Source: an uncultured virus (IMG/VR IMGVR_UViG_3300049185_000041)
Taxonomy: Duplodnaviria > Heunggongvirae > Uroviricota > Caudoviricetes
DNA length: 20,000 bases
IMG/VR virus record: IMGVR_UViG_3300049185_000041
Strand: one strand, 5' to 3'
Below are positions 2,352-19,873 of the stretch, piece by piece (the first letter of the stretch is position 1; every line of letters starts with the position of its first letter). The position numbers and the translations under genes were made by a program. The notes under the pieces were generated by a model. That model worked only from the letters and a program-made list of their open reading frames with translations. It made no database searches and was not told where the DNA came from.

Positions 2352-5300
2352 TCAATCCCGCTTGTTCAGCGATTTGCGGTTCGTCAAGGCTTTCGCCCGA
2401 TTCCGCAACGCCTGCCAAGCGGCTCGCCCGACAGATGTCGCCACGTTGTTCTTCGCCACCTCTTCGCCCTCGGTCGATCGCAGTCCAAGCCGGGTCTTCG
2501 CCACCTCGACGAGCCCGAGGAAGCTATCGGCGTTGTCCGGGGACCGGCCTTCCCTGTCCTTGTAACTCTTTTTTGGCTCGACTTTCAGCACTCTTGCGTC
2601 ACCTTCGCTCCCTTTCGCGTGCTGGCGGCTGCACAGCTCCTTGGCCAGTTCTTCATTGACGCCGCTGATCTGCCGCGACCGGAATAGCTTCTTCGCGCCA
2701 TACCACAGCTCGGTGGCCTTGTTCGCAAACCGTTCGTGGGCCAGCACCGGTTCGGTGGTGCCGGGCTTCTTGCCGGGCTTCTTCTCGCCCGTGGGCGTCT
2801 TCGAGGCAGGGCCTGCGGAGGTGATGCCGAGCACCGCTGGTGACCACTGCACCTTCACGATGTCGCCGAACGGTTGGCCGCCTCCAGTGGAGTCGTATCC
2901 AGCGTTCTCGGGCTTGATGCCGCGGGCGATGCACATCGCCTTCCAGCCGCGCACGATCTGATAGCTCGGCGGGACGTTGACGTCGTTGACATTCACCTTC
3001 ACCGCCTCGCCGCCGGTACGCACCAGACGCATGACACCGTCGATGTCCTCGCCGCACAGGCCGAAGGTCGCGTACGCGCGGTCACCGCCGGCCGTGAACG
3101 CCGGGTCGAGGAAGCTGCACTTCTCTGGCGGCCGGAACCCCCACACCACGTCGTCGGGAGACTGGCGGGCCCCGGACAATTCGATGTCGGCCGGGGTGTA
3201 GATGCCGGATCCCGCACCGGAAAGGCACCACGTCCCAAGCACCATCCGGTGGTAGAACAGCGAGTCGCGGCCATAATCCTTCTCCATCTGGTCAATCTCG
3301 GCCTTCCGGAGCATCCACGAGTAGCGGTCGTTGCCCTCGGTGATGCGGGGGTTTTTCTCCCCGTTGAAACGAATGCACAGGCCCCCGGACTCGGTCCTCC
3401 ACTCCTCATCACGGATCAGATCGACCTTGTCCCAGCCGCCTTCGGGCTTGGCGGCGAGCCCGAAGGTGTCGTAGGGCAGGTTCGGGTTCCCCAGATAGAT
3501 GACTTGGCAGTGCCCGACATTGCCGGGCTTGAGGTTGGTCTTGACCGCGGTCAGCACCGCCTCGGCGACGCCGGTCGCCTCATCGACGATCAGGATGATC
3601 TTGCCGATCCGGTCCTGGCTGATGTTGTAGAGTCGGGGAACGAGGTCGCGCAGCGTGGCCTCGTCGAAGTGATTGGCGAGGTCCGCGAACTCGGGGTGAG
3701 CCATCAGCCCTTCGAAGCTTTCGTCCGGCTCCCCGGTGCGGGGTGCCTTCATGCCGATGAGCTTGTTCACCGCTTCCTTCTCGGACCCTTGCTCGGCGGC
3801 GAGCAGGAAGATGCCGGTCGATTCCCCGAAGCTGTCGCCCTTGTAGTTGAGCCCGCGAATTTCGTTGGTCGCCCACGCGGGTTTGCCGGGCAAGAAAGGG
3901 ATTCCTTCCCAGTACTCGCGCACGGTCTTCCAGATGCGCTTCTTCGCCTCCTTGATCGAGGTCGACATCACCAGCACCAGCGTGTGCGTCGGATCGGTCG
4001 TGTAGCTCACGACGCCGTAGAGGGCGGCAGGGTCACTGTTGTGGACGACGGTGAAGTCAGCGAGCAGGAAACGGTGGTTACCGTCGACGGAGAAGCCGAC
4101 CCACGGCATATCCCCGGCGGGGGTGAGTTTGACCCCCGTGCAGTCCGAGTTCTGCCTGAGCTTTTTCTCGCGGCACTTCTTCCGGAGCGTCGGGATTTCG
4201 ACGACGTTACCGAAGATCGTGATGCGCCACGAAGGGAACTGCTTGCCTTGGCAGGTCGCCATCCGATGCACCGTCGAGACCCGGAATCCTAGTGACCGAG
4301 CGAGGAACGCGATGTCGTCCTTCAGCCCGGTGAACTTTGTCGCGATCTCGAAGTAAGTCCCTGCGGCATGTCCGTCGGTGTCGATCAGGCCTGCGAGGAG
4401 AAGCATCCGGTTTTTCCGGGAGTTCAGCAGGTAGTGGCGGGGGATCCGCTTCTCCATGTCATCCATCGACGACTTCAGAAACCGCCACAACGGATTGTTA
4501 GACATTCCGGCCGAAACATCACCTTCAGGGAAAACGGCGAAGGTCGGGCAAGTGAGATGCTCGTGGTCATACTCACGCATCTCGTAGCCCTCGTGCTCGC
4601 ACCATGCTTTCACATAGCTGAAAACCTCGGGTTCCGACCGCGGGATCGAGATCCGACACCGATGGCGCGCGCCGTCCCCCAGCCAGATTCCAAACAAGCG
4701 CGGATCCAGTTCGAGTTTCTTCTCGGGGAAATCGACACCAACGCAGAACTGCTTGTAATTGGTGCGGGTTTGTCCACTAGCCGTGTGGTAGTCTTTTGCG
4801 GGTATCTCAATGATCTCTCCGAGACGTCGGCGACTCCTCCCCGAAGCGATCGCTCTCTTCAGGACCAACACATGATCCTCCGTGCAGAACCACGGTTCGC
4901 CGTGGACCGGGGTCACCTTAAACATCGGCCCGACACCGGAATGCACCTCTTGCACGATCCGGGGCGCACTGTCGTCGCCCATCAGGCGATCTCCGGGCTT
5001 TACTTCATCCGCACGCTTGGTAGAACCGTCGTGCATTAGCACTAAGTCGTTGACTGACAAGCACTTACCCGCACTCGTGCATCCTGCGACGCATAGCTCC
5101 GGCTCCTCGCACATCTTCCGGAACATCCGGTTCGCCCAAGGGTTCCAGATGCACCGCTTCATCGACCCCGATGCGGGGTTGTTCCACGTCAGATCTACGT
5201 ATCGCTGGAAGTGGCTAAAACGCCCCAGCCCGCCCTCGTGCTCCTCGTGGCCGATGCGGAAGCACAGCGCCTCGATCTGGATCTGGTCACGGGTGCGATC

Positions 5301-5393
5301 CCCGGTGAGCTGGAAGTAATCCTCGCCGAAGCCGAGGCGCTGGAGGCCGTACCACTGGAGCGGCGGTTGGTCGGGTGCGGGTGCGACGGGCAT
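2352..5393 (-). CDS. terL: Terminase large subunit containing an intein (1013-aa precursor, ~671 aa after splicing)
   Basis: Walker A GCTSAGK/S is split by the intein. Also Walker B IILIVDEA, coupling motif YLGNP, and RNase H-like nuclease motifs FLDPAFTAGGD and SPDNADS. Confidence 0.85.
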   Translation of the reverse strand: MPVAPAPDQPPLQWYGLQRLGFGEDYFQLTGDRTRDQIQIEALCFRIGHEEHEGGLGRFSHFQRYVDLTWNNPASGSMKRCIWNPWANRMFRKMCEEPELCVAGCTSAGKCLSVNDLVLMHDGSTKRADEVKPGDRLMGDDSAPRIVQEVHSGVGPMFKVTPVHGEPWFCTEDHVLVLKRAIASGRSRRRLGEIIEIPAKDYHTASGQTRTNYKQFCVGVDFPEKKLELDPRLFGIWLGDGARHRCRISIPRSEPEVFSYVKAWCEHEGYEMREYDHEHLTCPTFAVFPEGDVSAGMSNNPLWRFLKSSMDDMEKRIPRHYLLNSRKNRMLLLAGLIDTDGHAAGTYFEIATKFTGLKDDIAFLARSLGFRVSTVHRMATCQGKQFPSWRITIFGNVVEIPTLRKKCREKKLRQNSDCTGVKLTPAGDMPWVGFSVDGNHRFLLADFTVVHNSDPAALYGVVSYTTDPTHTLVLVMSTSIKEAKKRIWKTVREYWEGIPFLPGKPAWATNEIRGLNYKGDSFGESTGIFLLAAEQGSEKEAVNKLIGMKAPRTGEPDESFEGLMAHPEFADLANHFDEATLRDLVPRLYNISQDRIGKIILIVDEATGVAEAVLTAVKTNLKPGNVGHCQVIYLGNPNLPYDTFGLAAKPEGGWDKVDLIRDEEWRTESGGLCIRFNGEKNPRITEGNDRYSWMLRKAEIDQMEKDYGRDSLFYHRMVLGTWCLSGAGSGIYTPADIELSGARQSPDDVVWGFRPPEKCSFLDPAFTAGGDRAYATFGLCGEDIDGVMRLVRTGGEAVKVNVNDVNVPPSYQIVRGWKAMCIARGIKPENAGYDSTGGGQPFGDIVKVQWSPAVLGITSAGPASKTPTGEKKPGKKPGTTEPVLAHERFANKATELWYGAKKLFRSRQISGVNEELAKELCSRQHAKGSEGDARVLKVEPKKSYKDREGRSPDNADSFLGLVEVAKTRLGLRSTEGEEVAKNNVATSVGRAAWQALRNRAKALTNRKSLNKRD
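4038..5063 (-). mobile_element. Intein with LAGLIDADG homing endonuclease (342 aa) inside the terL Walker A motif
   Basis: Starts CLSVNDLVLMHDGS after AGK, has block B FCTEDHVL and LAGLIDADG motifs LFGIWLGDG and LLAGLIDTDG, and ends FTVVHN followed by Ser(+1). Confidence 0.93.
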
Positions 5394-6682: not shown

Positions 6683-6687
6683 GTATC

Positions 6688-6726
6688 AAAAGAAACCCCG
6701 CCGCCGGACGAACCGGGGGCGGGGTT
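6688..6726 (-). terminator. Rho-independent terminator
   Basis: GC-rich stem AACCCCGCC-C-CCGG / CCGG-C-GGCGGGGUU followed by UCUUUU on the minus strand. Confidence 0.8.
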
Positions 6727-6756
6727 GTTAGATTCACGCCAATGAATCGAAACTCA
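6688..6756 (-). ncRNA. Candidate antisense sRNA complementary to the CACGCCA(A)UGAA start-codon motif
   Basis: Minus strand reads GAGUUUC-GAUUCA-UUGGCG-UGAAUC-UAAC-AACCCCGCCCCCGG-UUCGU-CCGGCGGCGGGGUU-UCUUUU. It is bounded by a promoter and an intrinsic terminator and contains no plausible ORF. Confidence 0.7.
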
Positions 6757-6762
6757 GGCTGG

Positions 6763-6791
6763 AGGATGCGCCGGGGTGGCGGGGTTGTCAA
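6763..6791 (-). promoter_or_regulatory. Sigma70-like promoter for the candidate sRNA
   Basis: Consensus TTGACA (6791-6786, overlapping the upstream stop codon), 17-nt spacer, CATCCT (6768-6763). Confidence 0.65.
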
Positions 6792-7489
6792 CCTCCGGCT
6801 TTCGGGTCCCCACCGGTTCCGAAGGCGTCAGTTCCCGCGTCGCGGTTGTACGCCTGCTGACCGGCGTCGTCCATCCGAGGGTGGTCGCTAGCGACCGTGA
6901 ACCGGGGCTCCTGGTCCGGATAGACGTGCCTGCTGAGATCAAGCATCCACTGCACGACGCGCTGGACCTCGGCTTCGGACGGCGGGGCGGTATCGCTCAC
7001 GAAGTCGCCCATCGGATTGCTCTTGCGCTTCGCGAGGCATCCGTCGAGGAACTCTGCGAGGATGAAGTCCGATGTCTTGAGTTCGACGTCCTTCGAGTGA
7101 CAGTTCAGGACGAGCGCGAGGTCTTGCTTGAACGTGGTGCGGCTGGGCCGGACGACCGGCCTCACGCAGTTCGCGACGTAGCGCCATGCGTCGGCTTGCT
7201 TCTGCTTGTTCGGGTCGGCGGCAAACTCGTCCCACGTGGGCAGTTTGTCACCGTTGTAAGCCACGCCTCCGACGCCGGCAGAATAGGCCGAGTAGAGGTA
7301 GCTCGCGATTGCCTCGGTGTCGCCGCCTGCGACCTCGGCGAACTTCAGGGTGGTGATTGCCTGCCGGATCTCCGCGGCCTTGGTGGCGCAGAGGTCCGCC
7401 TGTTCGATGTTCCCTTCCTTGCGGTGGATGGGCTCGTTGTTCCCCAGCGTGGAGAGTGTGATTTCGAGTTCAGCGATTGCGTGTTTCAT
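6788..7489 (-). CDS. Hypothetical phage protein (233 aa), apparently a composite of small domains
   Basis: Segments LYSAYSAGVGGVAYNGDKLPTWDEF and FKQDLALVLNCHSKDVELKTSDFILAEFLDGCL resemble recurring small phage domains. Co-oriented with its neighbours. Confidence 0.7.
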   Translation of the reverse strand: MKHAIAELEITLSTLGNNEPIHRKEGNIEQADLCATKAAEIRQAITTLKFAEVAGGDTEAIASYLYSAYSAGVGGVAYNGDKLPTWDEFAADPNKQKQADAWRYVANCVRPVVRPSRTTFKQDLALVLNCHSKDVELKTSDFILAEFLDGCLAKRKSNPMGDFVSDTAPPSEAEVQRVVQWMLDLSRHVYPDQEPRFTVASDHPRMDDAGQQAYNRDAGTDAFGTGGDPKAGG

Positions 7490-8987: not shown

Positions 8988-9199
8988 GTCATCTCGTCGA
9001 ATTTCTTCATTACCCGTTCCCACCAGTCCCGGATGTCCAGCACTCCGCCGAACCGGGTTGGCTCGCCCGCCGCCTCCACCGCATCACGGAATTTCTTCCG
9101 GGCAGCGGAGCGGGCCTCTTCAACGACTCCTTTCTCGACGGCTTCGATCAGCGCGAGTTCGGCCGCGGTGGCTTTCGATTTCAGTTCTGCGAGGGTCAT
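8984..9199 (-). CDS. Hypothetical protein (71 aa)
   Basis: Helical charged ORF with ATGA overlaps at both ends. Confidence 0.65.
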   Translation of the reverse strand: MTLAELKSKATAAELALIEAVEKGVVEEARSAARKKFRDAVEAAGEPTRFGGVLDIRDWWERVMKKFDEMT

Positions 9200-9588
9200 G
9201 GGCTTCCGGTGCGCGGGATGTTACCGATCGGGCCGACCTGCTCTGCCGTGCGTGTCACCTTCAGGATTCCCTTGATGGTGAACTGGCGTCGAGCCTCGTG
9301 GCTGCGGGTGAGCTTCTTCCCGCGGCCGTTCTCGTTATACGGCTGGACGGTGACCGTGCCGAAGTGCTGGTAGCCGCGCATGACGTGGCCGCCCGAAACG
9401 GAAATTACGATGCCCTTGCAGTAGCGCCGGGATCCATCGACGACCTCCACTTCATCGCCACCGCGGATGCCGAAGAACTCCTCGGTGACCTTGCGGGCCT
9501 CGCGATTATTGGCTTCCCTCACCGCCTGCGCGGCGGCATCGGACTTCGTCAGTTCCCGGAGACGCCGGGTCGCTTCACGTTTCGTCAT
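9196..9588 (-). CDS. Hypothetical basic protein (130 aa), possible SH3/KOW-like C-terminal half
   Basis: First gene after a promoter and preceded by TCACGCCC-ATG; beta-rich pattern IRGGDEVEVVDG...KGIVISV. Confidence 0.65.
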   Translation of the reverse strand: MTKREATRRLRELTKSDAAAQAVREANNREARKVTEEFFGIRGGDEVEVVDGSRRYCKGIVISVSGGHVMRGYQHFGTVTVQPYNENGRGKKLTRSHEARRQFTIKGILKVTRTAEQVGPIGNIPRTGSP

Positions 9589-12073: not shown

Positions 12074-12120
12074 TTTTTCGCGAAAAAAGAATTGCGGTCT
12101 GTTTCCGGCGGGTGTATTCA
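12074..12120 (+). promoter_or_regulatory. Promoter of the rightward (early-like) arm
   Basis: TTGCGG (12092-12097), 17-nt spacer, TATTCA (12115-12120). Preceded by the palindrome TTTTTCGCGAAAAA (12074-12087) in the UP-element position. Confidence 0.55.
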
Positions 12121-12145
12121 TTCCCCCGTCAATCGAAACACGCCA

Positions 12146-12328
12146 ATGAAGACGCTCGAAACCACCCTCTCCGCCATCGCCTACGCACTGCAAACCCCGC
12201 AGCGCGCCCGCCTCCGCCGCAATATTCGCGGATGGATTGGAAAAGCCATCAAAGCCGGCCCCCGCTCTCCGGAATGGGAGTTTGTCGCCAAGTGGAGCTT
12301 CGAACTCCGCATGCTGGAAATCCGCTGA
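12146..12328 (+). CDS. Hypothetical protein (60 aa)
   Basis: MKTLETTLSAIAY...; start defined by CACGCCA-ATG. Confidence 0.65.
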   Translation: MKTLETTLSAIAYALQTPQRARLRRNIRGWIGKAIKAGPRSPEWEFVAKWSFELRMLEIR

Positions 12329-12356
12329 CCTAGAAACCGCTTACCTCACGCCAATC

Positions 12357-12788
12357 ATGAAACACCCCGCCACCTTCGGCCAAGTTCTGCAAGCCATCAA
12401 AGCTTCAGACCTTTGGGACTTCTCACAGGAGTATTCACAAGGCCGGTTTTCCGTTGCCGTCTTCCATGACGATTTCCCGAAAGACCGCCGGCACGTTTAC
12501 CGGATTGAATGGCACCGCGACAACCGGAAGCCTCGCGTCAATCTAACCGTGCTTCGGAAATTCGATGCCGTGAAAAATTGCTGGAATGAGACCGTCCATG
12601 CCGAAAGCGGGTCTTGGTCTCTCCCGGACAAGCGCGGCGAGAAAGCCCTTGTCGGCTTCATTAAGGAAACCAGCAAGCGCCACGGCAAAGCCCCCAACCC
12701 GTCGTTCTTCTCTTTCCACCGCGCCACGGAAGACCGGGTCGCCATGGAGGAAGCCAATCTCGCGAAAGCCTTTCAAGGGCGTCTCTGA
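12357..12788 (+). CDS. Hypothetical protein (143 aa)
   Basis: MKHPATFGQVLQAIK...; start defined by CTCACGCCAATC-ATG. Confidence 0.7.
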   Translation: MKHPATFGQVLQAIKASDLWDFSQEYSQGRFSVAVFHDDFPKDRRHVYRIEWHRDNRKPRVNLTVLRKFDAVKNCWNETVHAESGSWSLPDKRGEKALVGFIKETSKRHGKAPNPSFFSFHRATEDRVAMEEANLAKAFQGRL

Positions 12789-12817
12789 TTCCCCGCAACC
12801 TCTTACTCACGCCAATC

Positions 12818-13063
12818 ATGAAAACAGAAGCCAGTCCGAAGTTCCGCAATAAAAACGGCACCCTTACAGCCTACGCTTTCGCTTGCGGCTACCTTGAGAC
12901 CCGCGAAAAGAATGGTGTTAAAGTCACCCTTGAGCGGGACTCCGCATGCTGGCACGTCAAGACGTGGGACAGCGTGGAAAAGGTCCGCCGCGCATGGGAA
13001 AGCGTCACCCTTCTAACGGACGCTCGGAAGGAATTCCGGCGGCAGTGCAAAACCTTTCTCTAG
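12818..13063 (+). CDS. Hypothetical phage protein (81 aa)
   Basis: CTCACGCCAATC-ATG start; contains GTLTAYAFACGYLE. Confidence 0.75.
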   Translation: MKTEASPKFRNKNGTLTAYAFACGYLETREKNGVKVTLERDSACWHVKTWDSVEKVRRAWESVTLLTDARKEFRRQCKTFL

Positions 13064-13101
13064 CCCTCTCCTCCCCGCCAGCCGCGCACGCCCGGCCTCC
13101 C

Positions 13102-13164
13102 GCTTTCCTTGCATTGGCGTGCAATAGACTCACCTGCCCTTGGCCTAGCCGGGGGCGGGTCGAG
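13102..13164 (+). ncRNA. Second copy of the anti-start-motif RNA element
   Basis: GCUUUCC-UUGCA-UUGGCG-UGCAA-UAGACUC-ACCUGCCCUUGGC-CUA-GCCGGGGGCGGGU-CGAG; same loop and two-hairpin layout as 6688-6756. Confidence 0.6.
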
Positions 13165-13234
13165 CCGGCGGGAGAACAGGGGTATGACGCCCCGGTCTCG
13201 CCGCAGTCCAGAAAACCAGTAAAATTCGCACGCC

Positions 13235-15088
13235 ATGAAGAATCCCGACCTATTCGACGAACGCCACGAAGCGACCTATTGCCCGGAAGACGACAAGTTG
13301 CGCCTCTACGTCGGTCGCGTCCCCCGCGACCAGTACGAAGCCCTACGCGCCGAAGGGTGGACCAGCACACCGAAACAGGATTGCGACTTTGCGGCGGTCT
13401 GGACGGTGGACCGTGAGAACACCGCGCTTTCCTTTGCCGGGGTGATTGGCGACGAGGACCAGAGCCCGCAGGACCGCGCCGCCGACCGCGCCGAACGCTT
13501 CGCCGGCTACCGGGACAAGCGCACCATGGAAGCCGGTGGCCACGCTGACCGGTACGACGCCGGGCCGTCCGCGCATGGCTATCAATCGCAAGCCCGTGCC
13601 GACCGTGCCGCCGCCCGGCATGACCGCATCGCCGACCGCGCTGTCAATGCATGGGACAAGGCGGACTACTGGACAAGCCGCACCGCTGGGGTGATTTCGC
13701 ACGCGCTGTACCGGTCTCGCCCCGATGTTCGCATGGGGCGCATCAAGGTCATTGAATCCGACCTGCGGAGGGCAAGCAAAGGCTTTGAGGATGCCGCGGA
13801 GCATCACCGCACGGTTGCCGCGATCGCCGCGGACCCCGACGGCGCGGCGATGGACCTTGTCCGCCGCTATTACAACGCCGCGGACCTCGCGCCGGAGGAA
13901 TTGGAGAACGTCCGCGACAAGGCCTCCAATGACCTGATTTCGGTCATTTGCGGACATGGCAAGGTGCGCAACCCATTGAACCCGGAAGCCCCGGCGGCCT
14001 ACCCCTTTGAGCATCGCCGCGAGGCGAACCCGCCCACGGTCTCGGACTACGCGAAACAGTGGCTCGCCGCTCACGCTGCCCCGGAAACCGACGCTTGGCA
14101 GATGACCGGAACGGCCCGGTACATCCGCCACTTGCAGCATCGCATTGCCTATGAAAATCAAATGCTGGAAGCGCAAGGCGGGCGGGAAGCTTTTACCGAA
14201 ATGGAAGCCGGCGGGATGCTCGGGACATACCTTGTCGTCCGGGTCTACAAGTCCCCGGCCACCGGTCGCGTGACTTCGGTCGATCTACTCCGCAAGGACA
14301 AGCCGACGGAACGCGAGTGGGGCGCGAAGAGGATCCCCGGCACGGATTTCTACCTTTGCCGGATTGACACGGAACGCTTGCCCGCCGGCACCTACGCCGC
14401 CCCCACGGATGAAAGCCGCGCTGAACTCGCCGCCCTGGATGCCGCGAAGAAAGAGCAACGCAAGGGAGCCGCGAAAGCCGCGCCGCTGGTCAATCCGACG
14501 TTGGAAGACGCGCAACGCTTGCAGGACCTCTTGAACGCCCGCCACCGGGCCGCATGGGTGAAGGTGCACGGCGAGCCGCGGGAAGGGTCCAGCCATCAGC
14601 CGGAACGCTCGGAGGTCTGCAAGGTGACGCAAGTGGTTTACTCCGCCAATTCCAAGGGGAGCTATTCCCGGGCGGAAACGGTGGAGTATTTCGCCGACGG
14701 TCAGGAACGCCGGAATCCCAGCCGCCGCGAGTCTCCGGTATGGGCACTCCGGCACGGCCCGGCAGTCTGCAAGCTCCGTGTCTCCGGCTACTCACCGCGC
14801 CGCGTGGTGTTCCTGACTGACAAGCCCGCCAAGGCCTTGCCCGCGGCGATCTGGTCCCCCTACCCGGACGCCCCGACGGCGGAGCAACTGCGGCCCCGTC
14901 TCGCTGAAATTCAAGCCGCCGTTTCCGCGGAGTATAACCGGCAGGACCTCACCCCGGAACAAGTGGACCTTTTGAACCGTTCGGCCGCGGTCGGCTGGAC
15001 CACGCATGAAAGCTACCGCCGCCAATGGACGGACGCCGGCATTGCGGAAGCCCGTGCCGCCGAAGTCATTGGCAAGGCCATCGTCTAA
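13235..15088 (+). CDS. DUF3560-like protein (617 aa)
   Basis: N-terminus ATYCPEDDKLRLY...PKQ...WT..RE...IGDED.S...RA..RAERF.GY..KR and HGYQSQARADR...KADYW resemble DUF3560 proteins of mobile elements; lies next to a methyltransferase. Confidence 0.7.
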   Translation: MKNPDLFDERHEATYCPEDDKLRLYVGRVPRDQYEALRAEGWTSTPKQDCDFAAVWTVDRENTALSFAGVIGDEDQSPQDRAADRAERFAGYRDKRTMEAGGHADRYDAGPSAHGYQSQARADRAAARHDRIADRAVNAWDKADYWTSRTAGVISHALYRSRPDVRMGRIKVIESDLRRASKGFEDAAEHHRTVAAIAADPDGAAMDLVRRYYNAADLAPEELENVRDKASNDLISVICGHGKVRNPLNPEAPAAYPFEHRREANPPTVSDYAKQWLAAHAAPETDAWQMTGTARYIRHLQHRIAYENQMLEAQGGREAFTEMEAGGMLGTYLVVRVYKSPATGRVTSVDLLRKDKPTEREWGAKRIPGTDFYLCRIDTERLPAGTYAAPTDESRAELAALDAAKKEQRKGAAKAAPLVNPTLEDAQRLQDLLNARHRAAWVKVHGEPREGSSHQPERSEVCKVTQVVYSANSKGSYSRAETVEYFADGQERRNPSRRESPVWALRHGPAVCKLRVSGYSPRRVVFLTDKPAKALPAAIWSPYPDAPTAEQLRPRLAEIQAAVSAEYNRQDLTPEQVDLLNRSAAVGWTTHESYRRQWTDAGIAEARAAEVIGKAIV

Positions 15089-15137
15089 CACCAACCCCCG
15101 GCGGCGGGGCTCCGGTCTCGCCGCCACTTCTCACGCC

Positions 15138-15809
15138 ATGAACCCGCCCGACCTCTCCCGCCTCCACACCCTCCGCGATGCCAATGATTTGCACGCGGCC
15201 ACCATGGAGTTAAACCGCGGACGCTTCGAAGCCCTCCGCACTCGCCATGAGGACGGCACCGCGCCGCGTGCGGTCTCCGCATACCAGCTTTTCCAGACCC
15301 CGCCGGCACTGGCGGCCCGCATGGTGGAGCTGGCCGAAGTAAAGCCCGGGGACGTGCTGCTTGAACCGTCCGCCGGTCTTGGCAGGATCATTGACCCGGC
15401 GCTTGCGGCGGGTGCCCGGGTCCTCGCCGTCGAGGTCTCGCCGGACCTTTCGGGCGAGCTTTTCCGGGCATACGAAGGGAAGGACGTGAGGCTATTGCAG
15501 CGCGACTTTCTGACCGTCCGGCCAGCCTATGAAGGCAACGCCGCGCTTATCGTGAAGGACCTCGCGGAAGTCCGCATTGACCGCGTGGTGATGAACCCGC
15601 CGTTTCACATGCGGGCGGACATTGCCCACGTAAGGCACGCGCTGCGATTCCTCCGCCCCAGTGGCGTCCTGGTCGGCTTGTGCCTGTCCACCCGCCACCG
15701 CACGGAAGCCCTGCAACCGCTCGCCGACCTGTGGGAAGTCATTCCCGCCGGGACGTTCAAGGGCGAGGGCACGAACGTCGAAACGGTCTTGTTCCGCATC
15801 ACTGGCTAA
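15138..15809 (+). CDS. SAM-dependent methyltransferase, N6-adenine DNA MTase-like (223 aa)
   Basis: QLFQTP, motif I LLEPSAGLG, AVE, DFL and catalytic motif IV VMNPPF; start at CTCACGCC-ATG. Confidence 0.85.
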   Translation: MNPPDLSRLHTLRDANDLHAATMELNRGRFEALRTRHEDGTAPRAVSAYQLFQTPPALAARMVELAEVKPGDVLLEPSAGLGRIIDPALAAGARVLAVEVSPDLSGELFRAYEGKDVRLLQRDFLTVRPAYEGNAALIVKDLAEVRIDRVVMNPPFHMRADIAHVRHALRFLRPSGVLVGLCLSTRHRTEALQPLADLWEVIPAGTFKGEGTNVETVLFRITG

Positions 15810-15822
15810 CATCCGCACGCCA

Positions 15823-15876
15823 ATGAAAACGCATCCAACACCACTCCCGGTCTCCATAACAGAAATCACGCCATGA
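15823..15876 (+). CDS. Possible 17-aa minigene MKTHPTPLPVSITEITP
   Basis: Has its own CACGCCA-ATGAA motif, and its stop overlaps the next ATG (ATGA). Confidence 0.4.
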   Translation: MKTHPTPLPVSITEITP

Positions 15877-16187
15877 AAACCTTTTACTTCAATACGGGCG
15901 TCCGGCCCCACGCTCACACGCCCCCGGTCAAATTGAGCCCCGGGCAAGTCATGAGGGGCGGCACGATGCAAATACCTTTCGACTGTGAGGGCGTGCCTGA
16001 GGGTGCGACCTTCGACCACGGAAGCGACAATCCGGAGCCCGGATACCCGGGCGAGATTGTCCGCGAGATCCACAACTCCGCCTTGGTCTCGAAATACGCG
16101 CACTTCCGCCCGCCGGTCTCCCCGGAGCCACACCCCTACGTCCAGAAGTCACTCCGCGGGGAGCAACCCAGCCACCCTTGGAAGTAA
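15873..16187 (+). CDS. Hypothetical protein (104 aa)
   Basis: ATCACGCC-ATG start. Confidence 0.7.
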   Translation: MKTFYFNTGVRPHAHTPPVKLSPGQVMRGGTMQIPFDCEGVPEGATFDHGSDNPEPGYPGEIVREIHNSALVSKYAHFRPPVSPEPHPYVQKSLRGEQPSHPWK

Positions 16188-16196
16188 CCCCTTTCC

Positions 16197-16264
16197 AACC
16201 CCCGCCCGGTCTCCGCAATGCACGGCCTTTGCATCCCAGCATGTAAGGGGCCGGGCGGGTTTTA
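16197..16264 (+). terminator. Long stem-loop followed by a U-tract (terminator-like or processing hairpin)
   Basis: CCCGCCCGGTCTC (16201-16213) pairs with GGGGCCGGGCGGG (16247-16259), followed by TTTTT. Confidence 0.5.
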
Positions 16265-16292
16265 AACCTCTCACCTGATAGAAATTGAAACC

Positions 16293-16694
16293 ATGAAACC
16301 GCACCTTAATATCCTGCTTTCCCTCGGAAACCCTATTCGCTCGAAATCCGGGGAGGCTATTGGGCTTTCCACCTTTCACCCGAATGAGAATCATCAACAT
16401 GGTGATGATCCGGCAGAGAATCCGTCGCAATGGGAAGAGACGGTTGCGGAAGTTCTCGACGGGGGTCCGCCGGGGGTCATGGAAGACCAAGCGGCCCGCA
16501 TCCGCGACACTTGGAACGCCTGCCACGGTCTCGACCTCCCGGCGGACGTGGAACCCGGCATCCTCGCGGACCTTGTGATGGTCTCCGGGGACATGGTGCG
16601 GAGCATCGGGGATGATTCCCTGACAGTTTACCATGGAACCAAGCTCGCGAACCTCCTTGCCAAGCTCGCACCGGTCTCCCCGTCGCCGCAATGA
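16293..16694 (+). CDS. Hypothetical protein (133 aa), paralogous in part to 18812..19342
   Basis: Shares AC.GLDLP.D..PGILA.LV...LA..LAKLAP with the other gene. Confidence 0.7.
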   Translation: MKPHLNILLSLGNPIRSKSGEAIGLSTFHPNENHQHGDDPAENPSQWEETVAEVLDGGPPGVMEDQAARIRDTWNACHGLDLPADVEPGILADLVMVSGDMVRSIGDDSLTVYHGTKLANLLAKLAPVSPSPQ

Positions 16695-16786
16695 CCCCCT
16701 CCCCCGAAATCCCGTTTGCTCGTTCCATTGCCGCATGCATCGCGGCCGGCTGGGGCGTCATTTGTGCCGCGATGCTGTATCTCTAA
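16691..16786 (+). CDS. Small hydrophobic protein (31 aa; not in the ORF track)
   Basis: MTPSPEIPFARSIAACIAAGWGVICAAMLYL*; ATGA overlap; fills the intergenic gap. Confidence 0.55.
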   Translation: MTPSPEIPFARSIAACIAAGWGVICAAMLYL

Positions 16787-16797
16787 CACCTCACGCC

Positions 16798-17055
16798 ATG
16801 AAAGGAAAGCCGTTCAACTACCCGGGGAGGGTTTCCCGCAAAACAAAGGTTCATTCCTTTTGCAGTCAAATGCGCCGGAAGCTGGTCCGCTCGGGAACTC
16901 TCAATCTCGCCACCGGCAAAACGGACCTGCCTAATGAGGAGTGGCGGGATGAACCATGTGGAACCCCGCTTTTCACGGACGGGGAGCGCCAATCCGGAAT
17001 CTGCAAATCATGCGCCGGAGGATGGACGCACCCGGAAAACTCCCTGCTGCCATGA
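16798..17055 (+). CDS. Hypothetical Cys-containing protein (85 aa), possible zinc ribbon
   Basis: CTCACGCC-ATG start; HSFC...PCG...GICKSC. Confidence 0.7.
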   Translation: MKGKPFNYPGRVSRKTKVHSFCSQMRRKLVRSGTLNLATGKTDLPNEEWRDEPCGTPLFTDGERQSGICKSCAGGWTHPENSLLP

Positions 17056-17195
17056 ACCGCCCCCGCCGCGCCGCCCTTCACCGGGGCATCCTCCACGCCC
17101 TGCCGCTGTCCATTATCCTGTGGGGCGGTCTCGCCGGGGCCGCCTATGCCGTCACCCGCGTCATTCTGACAATCACGAACCAATTCACGCCATGA
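17052..17195 (+). CDS. Small single-TM protein (47 aa)
   Basis: MNRPRRAALHRGILHALPLSIILWGGLAGAAYAVTRVILTITNQFTP; ATGA overlaps at both ends. Confidence 0.65.
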   Translation: MNRPRRAALHRGILHALPLSIILWGGLAGAAYAVTRVILTITNQFTP

Positions 17196-17440
17196 ATACC
17201 CAGATGCAATCCCAGGTCGCCGCAAAGCTGACCGAACTTAAAGCCGGTCTCCCCTCCACCGTGGAGAAGATCGAAACCGAAATCCGCCAATGGCGGGAGA
17301 CTCGCGACTACTGCCGCGACAAAGGCAACAAGTCGGCGGCGGAAGACGCGGAGGCTGCCGCCGTCGCGTTCATTGAAATCCTGCCGCCCCGCGTCAAGGC
17401 GGACTACACCGCCCCCGCTTGGATGTACGGTAGACTCTGA
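17192..17440 (+). CDS. Hypothetical protein (82 aa)
   Basis: MNTQMQSQVAAK...; TTCACGCC-ATG start. Confidence 0.7.
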   Translation: MNTQMQSQVAAKLTELKAGLPSTVEKIETEIRQWRETRDYCRDKGNKSAAEDAEAAAVAFIEILPPRVKADYTAPAWMYGRL

Positions 17441-17482
17441 CCGGCTTCCCGGTCTCCATTTAATCGCTAACAACCTCACGCC

Positions 17483-17797
17483 ATGAAAACGAAAGTCATC
17501 TTCCGCAAGTTCAAATCCGACGGCGAGATCCTCGCCCTGTTTCCCGAAGTCCCGCACGACCGCATGGGGGACTTCTGTGTCAGCTACGCCCACGTAGGGC
17601 AGCACGGGGCCGCGAGCCCGGTCTTGACCGGCACCACGAGCCCGGCAACCCCGGAAGAGAGCGCACCGCTTAAGCGCGAAATCGAAAGCCTTGGGTATGA
17701 CCTGGAAGTCTGCCGGCGGGTTTCGTTCAAGATGGACAAGGCACGCCGGGAAGCCGCACGCCAAAACCGCAACCCTAGCCCGGTCCCCACGCCATGA
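17483..17797 (+). CDS. Conserved-looking phage hypothetical protein (104 aa)
   Basis: VIFRKF...GEILALFP...SYAHVGQHG...ATPEE..PLKREIESLGY, a pattern I recall from phage early regions; motif start. Confidence 0.8.
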   Translation: MKTKVIFRKFKSDGEILALFPEVPHDRMGDFCVSYAHVGQHGAASPVLTGTTSPATPEESAPLKREIESLGYDLEVCRRVSFKMDKARREAARQNRNPSPVPTP

Positions 17798-18540
17798 ATG
17801 CAACCCTTTCACTTCCGACCATGGACAAGCCTCCCGTCTCTTCCCTCCGCACGCTCTCCGGCATCCGCAAGGTGGCCGATTGGCTTAAGCATCGTGCCGA
17901 CTCCGGCCAATGCCCGGAGACCTGGAAGCCGGGCGTCACGCCGCCGGTCTCGTTCGGCCCGTTCAAGATCCACGACAACATCACGGCCCTCTGGCGGGCT
18001 GCCGAGCTACTGCGAAGCAATGCCACCTACTCCGGGTCTCGCGGCAGCACGGCGATCCCCGATAGCGTGTGGAGTCTGCAAGCCGTCCGCGCCTACGGCA
18101 GCCCGGAAGCCGGTCTCGCGGCCATCCGGCGGCAGCTTGCCATTCAAGCCTGTGACATGGACCCGGCGGACGTGAAGCGATGCGAACGGGCCGCATGCAT
18201 GATCGAGCGGCACCTTGCGGAAGAGGCCGAATTGAAACGCGACATGGAAGAGGCGGAAGCGGAGGCCGCGGTGTTCAAGGCCGCCCGGCCAGCAGACCCG
18301 GACGCCCCGCCGACCATCGGCAGCACGGTTTACGTTTCAGCCGCGGGCCGCGCATGGAAAGGAACCGTGCTGGGGGTAGCTAACAAGCGCGATGCCGTCC
18401 TGGGGAAGACAGTCCCGCATGTTCAAGTTCAGCTTACCCATCGCCGGGAAACCGATGGCCGGAAGATCTACGGCTTCCACCCCGGCAAGGGTCTCGTGAA
18501 ACGCTGGGAGCCCTGCCGCTACGTCCTAGTTCCATCCTAG
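17794..18540 (+). CDS. Hypothetical protein (248 aa)
   Basis: CCCACGCC-ATG start with ATGA overlap; C-terminal SH3-like pattern IGSTVYVS...WKGTVLGV. Confidence 0.7.
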   Translation: MNATLSLPTMDKPPVSSLRTLSGIRKVADWLKHRADSGQCPETWKPGVTPPVSFGPFKIHDNITALWRAAELLRSNATYSGSRGSTAIPDSVWSLQAVRAYGSPEAGLAAIRRQLAIQACDMDPADVKRCERAACMIERHLAEEAELKRDMEEAEAEAAVFKAARPADPDAPPTIGSTVYVSAAGRAWKGTVLGVANKRDAVLGKTVPHVQVQLTHRRETDGRKIYGFHPGKGLVKRWEPCRYVLVPS

Positions 18541-18811
18541 CCCGGTCTCCCGGCCACCCCATCGCATGCGCCCCGCTCCCGGTGACACGGCAGCGGGGCA
18601 AAGGGGTGATGAAAGGCAACTCCATGAAGTGACCCCATAGCAGCCGGGCTGTGAGCCGGCACGCAAAGCCCCGGACAACCGGGCAACTATGACCCTGATT
18701 AATCGCCGCCCCGCGCAAGGGGAGAATCCGAACCGCCTCCGGCTGCCATCGTGCGGCCGGGGGCTCCGGCAGTAGAGGCCATCCCGGTCTCGCTTGAACC
18801 ATACTCACGCC

Positions 18812-19342
18812 ATGAAACTCGGAGCTTACAGACAGAACGACACCACGATCAATCTATTGGACCGCGACACCGGAGAGGACGTCGCCTCCCGCGCCCATGA
18901 ACCCGGGAAAGAGGATGAGACTTATGAAGCCCTCATGCCCCTCTGCAACGCCGTCTCCGCCTGCGATGGCCTCGACCTCCCGGAAGACTGTCCGCCGGGC
19001 ATCCTTGCGGAACTTGTGACCGCCGCCCGCGAGCTTGCCAACACCATTACCGGCTTCGGGATGAAATGCCCGAACGTCCCTATCCGGGTCGAAGGGGAGA
19101 CCCTTGCGGCCATCCTCGCCAAGCTCGCGCCCGCCGGCAGCCCGGACAACGGGAAGCCGGTCTCGCCGCCGGAGCCTCGCCCACAACTCCCCTTCGAAAA
19201 AGAAGTGCTGAATCCGGACGGCACCTTCAAGGCCGGACTCGGAGACACCACTGAGCCCACGGAATCCGGCGTCCGCTATCCCGAAGGGCAACCCAGCGGT
19301 CACGGTCACACGCCGCTGGAACACCGCATTGCCAACTACTGA
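18812..19342 (+). CDS. Hypothetical protein (176 aa), paralogous in part to 16293..16694
   Basis: CTCACGCC-ATG start; shared GLDLP/PGILA/LAKLAP module. Confidence 0.7.
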   Translation: MKLGAYRQNDTTINLLDRDTGEDVASRAHEPGKEDETYEALMPLCNAVSACDGLDLPEDCPPGILAELVTAARELANTITGFGMKCPNVPIRVEGETLAAILAKLAPAGSPDNGKPVSPPEPRPQLPFEKEVLNPDGTFKAGLGDTTEPTESGVRYPEGQPSGHGHTPLEHRIANY

Positions 19343-19456
19343 AACTCTCCGGGAGCCCCGATGGGAACTCGCCCTTCAAGGAGGGCAGGAACTGGGACGG
19401 AAGTCCGGTTCACGGGGCTCCCGGTCTCCACTCTCACCAATAGAAATCACGCCACT

Positions 19457-19873
19457 ATGAACACGAAACAATTCTCGCTCGCACAAGTCCTCTCCATCAC
19501 CACTAGCCGCCTTTGCTGCGACATGGGCAGCATCTACGAGATACTGAACCACATCACCGGGGACAACCTCTTCACGCATGTCCTGCCGCGTGCTGCAAGG
19601 TTCGCCGCCCCTCTCATTCTTGAGGACCACCCGGAACTCAAGCCCGCGGGCGCGTGTCTCGACAGTTTGGACCGCTGGCTGGCCAGCGACCGGACTCCCG
19701 AGAAAAGCGAGGGCATTAAAATGTGGCTCGCCGAACTCCGGATGATGTTCCCGGACATCAAGCCGGAATATGAAATCCGAAGCTACTCGGACGCATGGCT
19801 GTCACTGAACCCGCTCGATGAACTGGCTGCGATGGCAGGGCCGGAGAAGATCGTCGTAGTCGAGAAAGCCTAA
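19457..19873 (+). CDS. Conserved-looking phage hypothetical protein (138 aa)
   Basis: FSLAQVLSITTSRL...IYEILNHITGDNLFTHVLPRA; ATCACGCCACT-ATG start. Confidence 0.8.
   Translation: MNTKQFSLAQVLSITTSRLCCDMGSIYEILNHITGDNLFTHVLPRAARFAAPLILEDHPELKPAGACLDSLDRWLASDRTPEKSEGIKMWLAELRMMFPDIKPEYEIRSYSDAWLSLNPLDELAAMAGPEKIVVVEKA

Follow-up and report, generated by a model that had tools for sequence, protein, structure and literature searches.

Start-associated sequences (SASs) were described in 2011 in the Cluster K mycobacteriophages, and that paper, by Pope et al., also records a reverse-oriented SAS site without an obvious link to a gene start and reports that the SAS is nearly absent from mycobacterial genomes (PMC3203893). 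The role of these sequences was still called unknown in papers from 2024 and 2025 (PMC11373665, PMC12699233). Here, we describe an analogous start tag in a 20,000-nt stretch of DNA from an uncultured virus (IMG/VR record IMGVR_UViG_3300049185_000041; Caudoviricetes), referred to below as the window, which is part of a phage or prophage. The focus is on a reverse-oriented copy of the tag (anti-SAS), located in a small hairpin within the spacer at 13064-13234, immediately upstream of a gene for a DUF3560-domain protein. A first-pass annotation made from the sequence had proposed that this hairpin belongs either to a processed small RNA (sRNA) or to a conformational switch.

Phages and bacteria offer several precedents for control at or near start codons. 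In phage MS2, the start of the maturation gene is closed after a delay by long-distance pairing, and attenuators are three-segment switches. The RegA repressor and RegB nuclease of phage T4 target the start sites of many early mRNAs, while P22 sar and lambda OOP are phage antisense RNAs with one target gene each, transcribed from the opposite strand. Finally, terminator-linked sRNAs derived from 3′ untranslated regions (UTRs) are known in bacteria.

A start tag on the early genes

The SAS of this phage is CACGCCA(A)TGAA. The tag lies 0-4 nt before the ATG in 13 of 14 early plus-strand genes, in the forms CACGCC-ATGAA, CACGCCA-ATGAA and CACGCCAATC-ATGAA, and CACGCCA occurs 16 times in the window against 4.05 expected, with 15 copies on the plus strand and one on the minus strand. 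It is, then, a short, asymmetric, conserved word within a few bases of many start codons, confined to the non-structural arm in one orientation, with rare reverse copies away from gene starts. Where genes overlap by ATGA, the tag is preserved inside the upstream coding sequence. No minus-strand gene has the exact tag, and one has CACGCCC-ATG. Shine-Dalgarno sequences are absent on both strands, with no AGGAG located 5′ of the tags, and the leaders at 12329-12370 and 12789-12830 have no predicted structure at all. We infer that the plus strand is transcribed as one RNA and that the tag acts at the RNA level, in translation initiation.

Searches of IMG/VR with two 15-mers of the tag returned 65 and 52 loci, among which only one contig, G001, has more than three tags. 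G001, a distant relative (47.9 kb; CheckV completeness estimate, 85%), carries the tag at 11 gene starts and shares only two proteins with the window, namely an Arg-rich protein of 60 aa (72% identity) and a protein of 130 aa (55%); the tag is therefore conserved across phages before unrelated genes, as has been described for the SASs of Cluster K. Six reverse copies of CACGCCA occur in G001, all of them in coding sequence, including one in the codons GYWRV of an HNH-like open reading frame (ORF) and one that is the gene start ATGGCGTG.

The two systems share several features. In both, at least a dozen genes carry a short asymmetric word a few bases ahead of their start codons; this word is limited to the non-structural arm and is found nearly always in one orientation, with a single reverse copy away from a gene start, and nearly all tagged genes use ATG. 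A second, upstream inverted-repeat element accompanies the Cluster K word in about half of cases, and its counterpart here is a set of GC hairpins with the word CGGTCTC. In contrast, the Cluster K word GGGATAGGAGCCC holds a Shine-Dalgarno core, whereas CACGCCA lacks one and directly adjoins or overlaps the ATG. The host also belongs to another phylum, and here the word is additionally found at ordinary host-type gene starts. The phage tag is an analogue of the Cluster K SAS and not a member of that group, as it lacks the GGGATAGGAGCCC sequence.

A reverse copy of the tag in the DUF3560 spacer

The spacer and its flanking genes contain the following features:

12818-13063, plus strand: gene for an 81-aa protein (start tag at 12808; phrog_16510)
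13064-13234, plus strand: non-coding spacer of 171 nt between the 81-aa gene and the DUF3560 gene (ORF list)
13086-13092, plus strand: tag-like decoy GCACGCC without ATG, able to pair with 13116-13122
13097-13103, plus strand: 5′ strand of an outer stem, CUCCCGC, which forms only in RNA cut to 13097-13174
13109-13124, plus strand: small hairpin UUGCA-UUGGCG-UGCAA, the reverse-oriented start tag (sequence; stem and chance tests)
13112-13121, plus strand: core CAUUGGCGUG (DNA CATTGGCGTG), the exact complement of CACGCCAAUG
13132-13160, plus strand: GC hairpin ACCTGCCCTTGGC-CTA-GCCGGGGGCGGGT with a 13-bp stem and no U-tail, present in every predicted state
13168-13174, plus strand: 3′ strand of the outer stem, GCGGGAG, which in the minimum-energy fold pairs instead with UCUCGCCGC (13196-13204)
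13179-13193, plus strand: small hairpin GGGGU-AUGAC-GCCCC (predicted fold)
13193-13199, plus strand: first of 19 early-block copies of CGGTCTC
13228-13237, plus strand: GCACGCC-ATG at the beginning of the DUF3560 gene (tag plus start codon), the predicted partner of the anti-SAS
13235-15088, plus strand: gene for a 617-aa DUF3560-domain protein (PF12083, E 4e-10; homologues)

The anti-tag hairpin is a genuine feature and is unlikely to be a chance match, given the rarity of its exact 10-mer, its location in a spacer, the presence of three GCACGCC words there and the predominance of flanking stems at orphan copies of the tag. The 10-mer CATTGGCGTG has four matches on the two strands of the window versus 0.07 expected, a count that none of 200 shuffles reached, and its sole plus-strand copy begins at 13112. 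GCACGCC or its complement occurs ten times in the window (6.19 expected), and three of these ten lie inside the 171-nt spacer. A flanking stem of at least 5 bp is found at both orphan copies, i.e., this one and another at 6.7 kb, as compared to 1 of 24 gene-linked copies, 13 from the window and 11 from G001 (hypergeometric 3/325 = 0.009). At 13109-13124, moreover, the stem is maintained by off-consensus bases, with G in place of the consensus T ahead of CACGCC and C in place of A behind ATG. Both orphans run antisense to the genes around them, and because the reverse copy sits in a plus-strand spacer of the early operon, the early RNA bears the complement of the tag.

Direct reading of the sequence agrees with every letter and coordinate of the first-pass annotation. 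The hairpin is preceded by TTTC and followed by ATAGAC, no T-run follows the GC hairpin, and the outer stem is present as sequence (CTCCCGC at 13097-13103 and GCGGGAG at 13168-13174). GCACGCC is found at both 13086-13092 and 13228-13234, the second copy adjoining the ATG at 13235. The annotation's view of the element as an anti-motif is supported, in that it is a non-random copy of the start motif in reverse orientation.

Predicted folding and a candidate anti-start switch

Our leading, though tentative, reading is that the hairpin is a cis-acting anti-start element controlling the DUF3560 gene. The anti-SAS GGCGUGC (13116-13122), together with CAU and CUU, would pair with GCACGCC-AUG-AAG of that gene, and this closed pairing would hide both its tag and its start codon. 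During transcription, the upstream GCACGCC at 13086-13092 would hold the anti-SAS first, such that initiation would be possible on a newly made transcript until it refolded to the closed state. A switch of this kind may operate in cells to limit the amount of DUF3560 protein made per transcript, and perhaps also that of the methyltransferase encoded behind it.

Energy models return this arrangement. Three states of the full transcript were compared, and the closed state (-73.2 kcal/mol) is more stable than the decoy state (-68.5) and than the state with the local hairpin and outer stem (-65.8), the latter two being mutually exclusive alternatives to it. At equilibrium, with the gene start included, 13116-13122 is predicted to pair with 13234-13228 at a probability of 0.964-0.966, versus 0.034 for the decoy and about zero for the local hairpin; the outer stem likewise has a probability of about zero in the full transcript. 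The pairing comprises seven contiguous base pairs, plus the extensions to the initiation region, within the minimum-energy fold, and the duplex of the anti-SAS with the DUF3560 tag is worth -18.8 kcal/mol. All transcript prefixes ending at or before 13225 are predicted to contain the decoy pairing, 13086-13092 with 13116-13122. In addition, among the 14 early starts, none is as inaccessible as that of the DUF3560 gene (mean probability of being unpaired 0.19, versus 0.32-0.76 for the others), and C13122, following the core, matches a G before the tag that is found in only 3 of the 15 plus-strand copies, including that of the DUF3560 gene.

The first-pass annotation's idea of three interacting elements (decoy, anti-motif and leader) is thus what the thermodynamic model itself yields. 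Its drawn structure, a local hairpin enclosed by the outer stem, holds for cut RNA: the excised 78 nt of 13097-13174 have this structure as their minimum-energy fold (-45.4 kcal/mol), and the sub-region folds better than shuffled sequences, against which all fold z-scores were measured (z -3.25; 2 of 200 shuffles equal). In the unprocessed transcript, however, the same structure is the least stable of the three states. As to the annotation's choice between a switch and a processed sRNA, the conformational switch fits better; no promoter-like or terminator-like site for a separate RNA was found at the 13.1-kb copy. Overall, the annotation's observation is confirmed and its interpretation partly supported.

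The proposed switch resembles those of MS2 and the attenuators in having an upstream segment complementary to the start in the same RNA, a second upstream partner that can hold this segment first, and a closed state that is the more stable one. It differs in that it rests on energy models, and in that its segment is a copy of a genome-wide tag rather than a gene-specific sequence.

Several points weigh against this reading of the hairpin. The spacer as a whole folds no better than its shuffles (z -0.88 on the plus strand and -0.38 on the minus strand). Moreover, the high pairing probability describes a consistent model and is not an independent test, because the model would pair any anti-tag in the operon with whichever tag is nearest. 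G001, the only other tagged phage, has no anti-tag in the spacers that were read, and where contigs from three of four other soil runs (X7 being the exception) reach into parts of the spacer, they match the window without differences. In 22 other loci, DUF3560 homologues have open starts (0.34-0.69), so that closing of the start is no conserved requirement of this gene. The decoy is found 23 nt downstream of the stop codon and hence has no obvious link to ribosomes ending the 81-aa gene. Finally, in the Cluster K phage Amgine, the loop of a corresponding hairpin (see below) has lost its anti-SAS while the SAS is unchanged.

The second copy at 6.7 kb

The other orphan copy of the tag lies in the minus-strand block of the window:

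6686-6726, minus strand: GC hairpin 6726-6694 plus UUUCUUUU, a likely intrinsic terminator after gene 6788-7489
6731-6748, minus strand: hairpin GAUUCA-UUGGCG-UGAAUC, which on the plus strand reads as a tag with ATGAAT

This element is situated between the minus-strand gene at 6788-7489 and the block leading to the terminase, and the orphan tag at 6735 forms a 6-bp hairpin directly 5′ of the terminator-like GC hairpin with its U-run. The plus-strand ORF of 49 codons behind it looks non-coding. Since the tag is plus-oriented within a minus-strand block, the local minus-strand RNA carries the tag's complement, as in the early operon. Read on the minus strand, the hairpin (6748-6731) is followed by TAAC and not by TAGAC, and then by the GC hairpin at 6726-6694 and TTTCTTTT; the region 6686-6752 folds at z -4.50 relative to shuffles.

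The two copies have a common layout of stop codon, ~45 nt, a small hairpin with a UUGGCG loop, and a GC hairpin, of which the first-pass annotation had noted the shared core and the similar GC hairpin. It was also right that the outer part of the small stem has changed and still pairs (T-A to G-C and A-T to T-A, as seen in these two sequences). The further conclusion that this covariation marks a real RNA family does not follow: there are just two paralogues with two compensatory pairs, and no third member was found. Local alignment of the copies scores 28 versus 16.7 ± 2.5 for shuffles, with 2 of 2000 shuffles as high, and it does so because of the 10-mer core only; outside the core the similarity is not significant (96 of 2000 shuffles for the upstream flank and 282 of 2000 for the downstream flank). 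The C-rich tract after the stop codon is common to most spacers of the phage. A covariance model built from both copies matched only its training copies in 412 kb of sequence that included G001, 24 DUF3560-homologue loci and two Cluster K phages. Rfam covariance models gave no match at E up to 1 across both strands of the whole window. The case for an RNA family is therefore weak, and any such family would appear to reach no further than the two copies in the window.

Other explanations for the hairpin

The absence of function deserves consideration, with the reverse copy either matching by chance or left over from recombination or inversion at the repeated tags. We regard this as unlikely, albeit the least so of the three alternatives. 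It would agree with the existence of only two copies, the absence of the reverse copy from G001, the general background that repeated junction motifs are known gene-swapping sites in phages, and the 3-bp inverted repeat already contained in the consensus TCA...TGA. Such a relic would nevertheless have to account for a perfect 10-mer where chance predicts 0.07 over the two strands of the window, its location in spacer sequence (~6% of the window), three extra base pairs contributed by flanks at off-consensus positions (G for T and C for A), a third GCACGCC 24 nt upstream of the anti-tag, and the antisense orientation of both orphans to local genes. Rather unlikely, in our estimate, is a site that works at the DNA level, where the tag would be read by a protein or serve as a promoter-like start module and the reverse copy would be an opposite module, e.g., for an antisense transcript over the first three early genes, or an operator. 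When viewed in the tag's own direction, both orphans do resemble ordinary start modules, with a GC hairpin followed by 7-10 nt, the tag and an ATG, and neither has a credible ORF behind it (49 and 33 codons, Arg/Gly-rich). The strand-specific CGGTCTC also travels with the tags and occurs within genes in all three frames, and the Cluster K authors favour a role of DNA-binding proteins at the extended SAS, in which they also locate promoters. The variable distance of 0-4 nt between tag and ATG and the retention of the tag at ATGA overlaps are, however, better suited to translation than to a fixed site of transcription start, and the arms of the palindrome differ and co-vary (TTGCA versus ATTCA), which is the opposite of what a sequence-specific dimer site would show. 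In host genomes, moreover, the word is often found behind an AGGA-like Shine-Dalgarno element and hence lies inside the leader.

The processed sRNA of the first-pass annotation would be cut from the early transcript at about 13097-13174, with its loop pairing in trans with many tagged early mRNAs; as a paralogue of the terminator-linked 6.7-kb RNA, it would exert feedback on the whole tagged gene set. Attractive here are the excised 78-nt piece with the drawn structure as its minimum-energy fold, the layout in common with a copy that itself ends in a terminator-like hairpin and U-run, and the two stem pairs changed on both sides with pairing retained. Predicted duplexes with 14 tagged starts also range from -12.6 to -21.7 kcal/mol, as compared to -4.7 for the untagged gene at 16293. 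We nonetheless consider this quite unlikely. The 13.1-kb copy has no U-tail and so no terminator of its own, and a simple promoter and terminator scan, in which nothing rose above its shuffles, returned part of the 6686-6726 element and no site at the 13.1-kb copy. The local hairpin has a probability of about zero in unprocessed RNA, the flanks resemble those of the 6.7-kb copy insignificantly once the core is set aside, and no homologue was found in IMG/VR, in the covariance searches or in G001. The 6.7-kb copy is like a 3′-UTR-derived sRNA in having a seed hairpin before a GC hairpin and U-run at the end of a coding transcript, whereas the 13.1-kb copy has no U-run and lies between genes of one operon. 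RegA and RegB provide the parallel of one factor and a sequence shared at or next to the start codons of early genes, but they are proteins, and sar and OOP are single-gene antisense RNAs from the opposite strand.

Mirror hairpins in Cluster K and a possible two-part system

A comparable hairpin is present in Cluster K and counts in favour of the anti-start reading. Phage Anaya (Cluster K1) has 16 forward SAS copies and one reverse copy (0.67 expected), the latter in a 385-nt spacer between gp96 and gp97 (L205 39683-40067) that folds at z -5.96. The reverse SAS sits in the loop of GCGCGG-CCUCCUAUCC-CCGCGC, and the structured spacer is conserved in 135 records. In an alignment of nine phages, the loop is retained in the consensus fold, carried by an inner stem of 6 bp and an outer stem of 10 bp, with one outer-stem pair changed on both sides in two sequences. 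The loop sequence is kept in seven of the nine phages and has decayed in Ekdilam and Amgine, the latter of which keeps its SAS. The Adephagia paper puts the apparent start of late transcription between genes 92 and 93, in the spacer with the reverse SAS. The hairpin goes unmentioned in the accessible text of Cluster K papers on late transcription and on the SAS, the TM4/XylR preprint makes no mention of the SAS, and a literature search linking start-associated sequences with small RNA found none.

It is conceivable, if on balance doubtful, that start tags and mirror hairpins constitute a general two-part system of phages, with the tag at many gene starts and its complement in RNA hairpin loops. 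Mirror loops at chosen points of a transcript would then time or shut off translation of the tagged set, and the tag could be private to the phage or derived from its host. In the window, one mirror would act at the terminator-linked end of a minus-strand operon near the packaging genes, and a second, tuned to the DUF3560 gene by an extra G-C pair, would act in the early operon. In Cluster K, the mirror would be the reverse SAS, which occupies the loop of a conserved hairpin in the spacer where late transcription reportedly begins. As the tag also marks ordinary gene starts in some Verrucomicrobiota (see below), a mirror RNA could reach host mRNAs as well.

With this phage, a second, unrelated lineage displays the rules of Cluster K, namely a tag on the early genes, its use in one orientation and a solitary reverse copy. 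The occurrence of the reverse copy in an RNA hairpin in both lineages makes the role of the SAS accessible to a direct mutation experiment, for which the Cluster K phages are already tractable. The tag-mirror arrangement thereby provides a testable idea for the control of start tags, and the more general mirror idea stays testable as well.

The tag in Verrucomicrobiota genomes

The word TCACGCCATGAA matches 162 of 401 sampled genomes of the phylum Verrucomicrobiota. In five genomes picked because they already had matches, CACGCCATGA occurs 32, 4, 30, 21 and 29 times, versus 6, 5, 5, 1 and 7 for a reversed control; it is several-fold enriched in four of them (G169, G116, G161 and G293; loci L215-L260) and not enriched in G209. 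Among 20 matches from 20 genomes, ten are at plausible gene starts, namely those of a B12-binding protein, FeeM, a prepilin-type protein, an NYN protein, four PALP enzymes that are probably orthologues, a protein with a weak BNR match below the Pfam cut-off and one protein without a Pfam match. In one complete genome, 5 of 20 matches pass a strict start test, with about as many more by eye, and several of the start words there stand behind an AGGA-like element. Pairing of the tag with 16S rRNA was discarded as a straightforward explanation: GGCGTG is missing from the 16S rRNA of G169, which ends in the usual CCTCC tail, and is present once in that of G209, close to the 5′ end. These occurrences point to a non-Shine-Dalgarno start signal in some Verrucomicrobiota and suggest the host group of the phage. 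The tag looks like a start context of the host lineage that the phage would be using in concentrated form.

Two arrangements of the word were also observed in this sample. In a 2.8-kb contig (G010; L216 96-130), two divergent ORFs start with ATTCACGCCATGAAT, the words being 8 nt apart, and in G169 (L215 9951-9984) a 22-nt unit with TTTCACGCCATGAAAC is repeated in tandem.

Other tagged genes, shared proteins and a second word

The window's plus strand at 12146-19873 holds 14 genes, mostly small and mostly of unassigned function, and including those for the DUF3560 protein and a methyltransferase-like protein. Apart from the tag of the DUF3560 gene, the following were recorded:

12139-12148, plus strand: start tag CACGCCAATG of the 60-aa gene (motif scan, gene starts)
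12347-12359, plus strand: start tag CACGCCAATCATG of a 143-aa gene (motif scan, gene starts)
12808-12820, plus strand: start tag CACGCCAATCATG of the 81-aa gene (motif scan, gene starts)
15132-15140, plus strand: start tag CACGCCATG of the methyltransferase gene (motif scan, gene starts)
15138-15809, plus strand: gene for a 223-aa DNA methyltransferase-like protein (PHROG methyltransferase families to E 5e-26; weak Pfam MTS)
15816-15825, plus strand: start tag GCACGCCAATG of a 17-codon ORF, the best anti-SAS duplex partner (-21.7 kcal/mol)
15867-15875, plus strand: start tag of a 104-aa gene (motif scan, gene starts)
16792-16800, plus strand: start tag of an 85-aa gene (motif scan, gene starts)
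17186-17194, plus strand: start tag of an 82-aa gene, the sole gene-linked copy with a 5-bp flanking stem
17477-17485, plus strand: start tag of a 104-aa gene (motif scan, gene starts)
17788-17796, plus strand: start tag of a 248-aa gene, within the 3′ end of the upstream gene (ATGA overlap)
18806-18814, plus strand: start tag of a 176-aa gene (motif scan, gene starts)
19448-19459, plus strand: start tag CACGCCACTATG of a DUF7736 gene (motif scan, gene starts, Pfam)

The TGA of the 17-codon tagged ORF (15823-15876) overlaps the ATG of the following tagged gene, again as ATGA. The second word, CGGTCTC (usually cCGGTCTCsc), has 20 plus-strand and three minus-strand copies in the window versus 5.08 expected on both strands, and 19 of the plus-strand copies lie within 13193-19428, eight in spacers and 11 in genes, in all three frames. 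In spacers it is often one arm of a GC hairpin, 12-29 nt 5′ of a start tag. G001 has 11 forward copies in its early region at 1.3-5.7 kb.

The two proteins shared with G001 are encoded in the window at 12146-12328 on the plus strand (60 aa) and at 9196-9588 on the minus strand (130 aa), and each is a candidate reader of the tag or of CGGTCTC. The 130-aa protein is modelled as a long helix with a small beta-barrel (pLDDT 64.2, too low for a structure search) and has a weak KOW-like Pfam match; its gene starts with CACGCCC-ATG in the window and with CACGCCAACC-ATG in G001. As a single query it found no viral loci, a protein atlas gave unnamed viral clusters only, and its alignment produced two marginal matches (E about 7e-4) over the 401 Verrucomicrobiota-phylum genomes. 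The alignment search with the 60-aa protein found G001 only.

On the minus strand, the main landmark is as follows:

2352-5393, minus strand: large terminase gene with an intein (Pfam and PHROG matches)

The intein, at residues 117-396, comprises a Hint domain and a homing endonuclease domain. Other minus-strand products are an AAA ATPase, a DUF3307 membrane protein and a serine recombinase, and a scan of the window for tRNA and tmRNA found no genes.

Relatives of the spacer and of the DUF3560 gene

The 16-mer of the hairpin was found at 40 loci in IMG/VR, which were rejected as relatives: all are unrelated and none has the start tag, and in 33 of them the hairpin is next to a common flank that belongs to an unrelated phage group. 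The region 12100-13400 had no match in the phage collection when searched in distant mode. Relatives of the DUF3560 protein were found at 5 viral, 8 genome and 29 metagenome loci, including metagenome-assembled genomes labelled Verrucomicrobia, Lentisphaeraceae, Victivallales and Kiritimatiellia; those inspected had neither the tag nor any other start-adjacent word.

DNA of the window is present in soil metagenome runs, with no RNA run among those listed. A 151-nt contig from run X10, a different soil sample, contains a copy of 13152-13175, i.e., the 3′ half of the GC hairpin plus GCGGGAG, joined to other spacer sequence. It continues with 38 other letters and then a start tag with ATGAAAAC, similar to that at 12808-12825, and it stops short of the upstream position at which an anti-tag would lie. 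This contig suggests that spacer modules may have been reshuffled among relatives of the phage.

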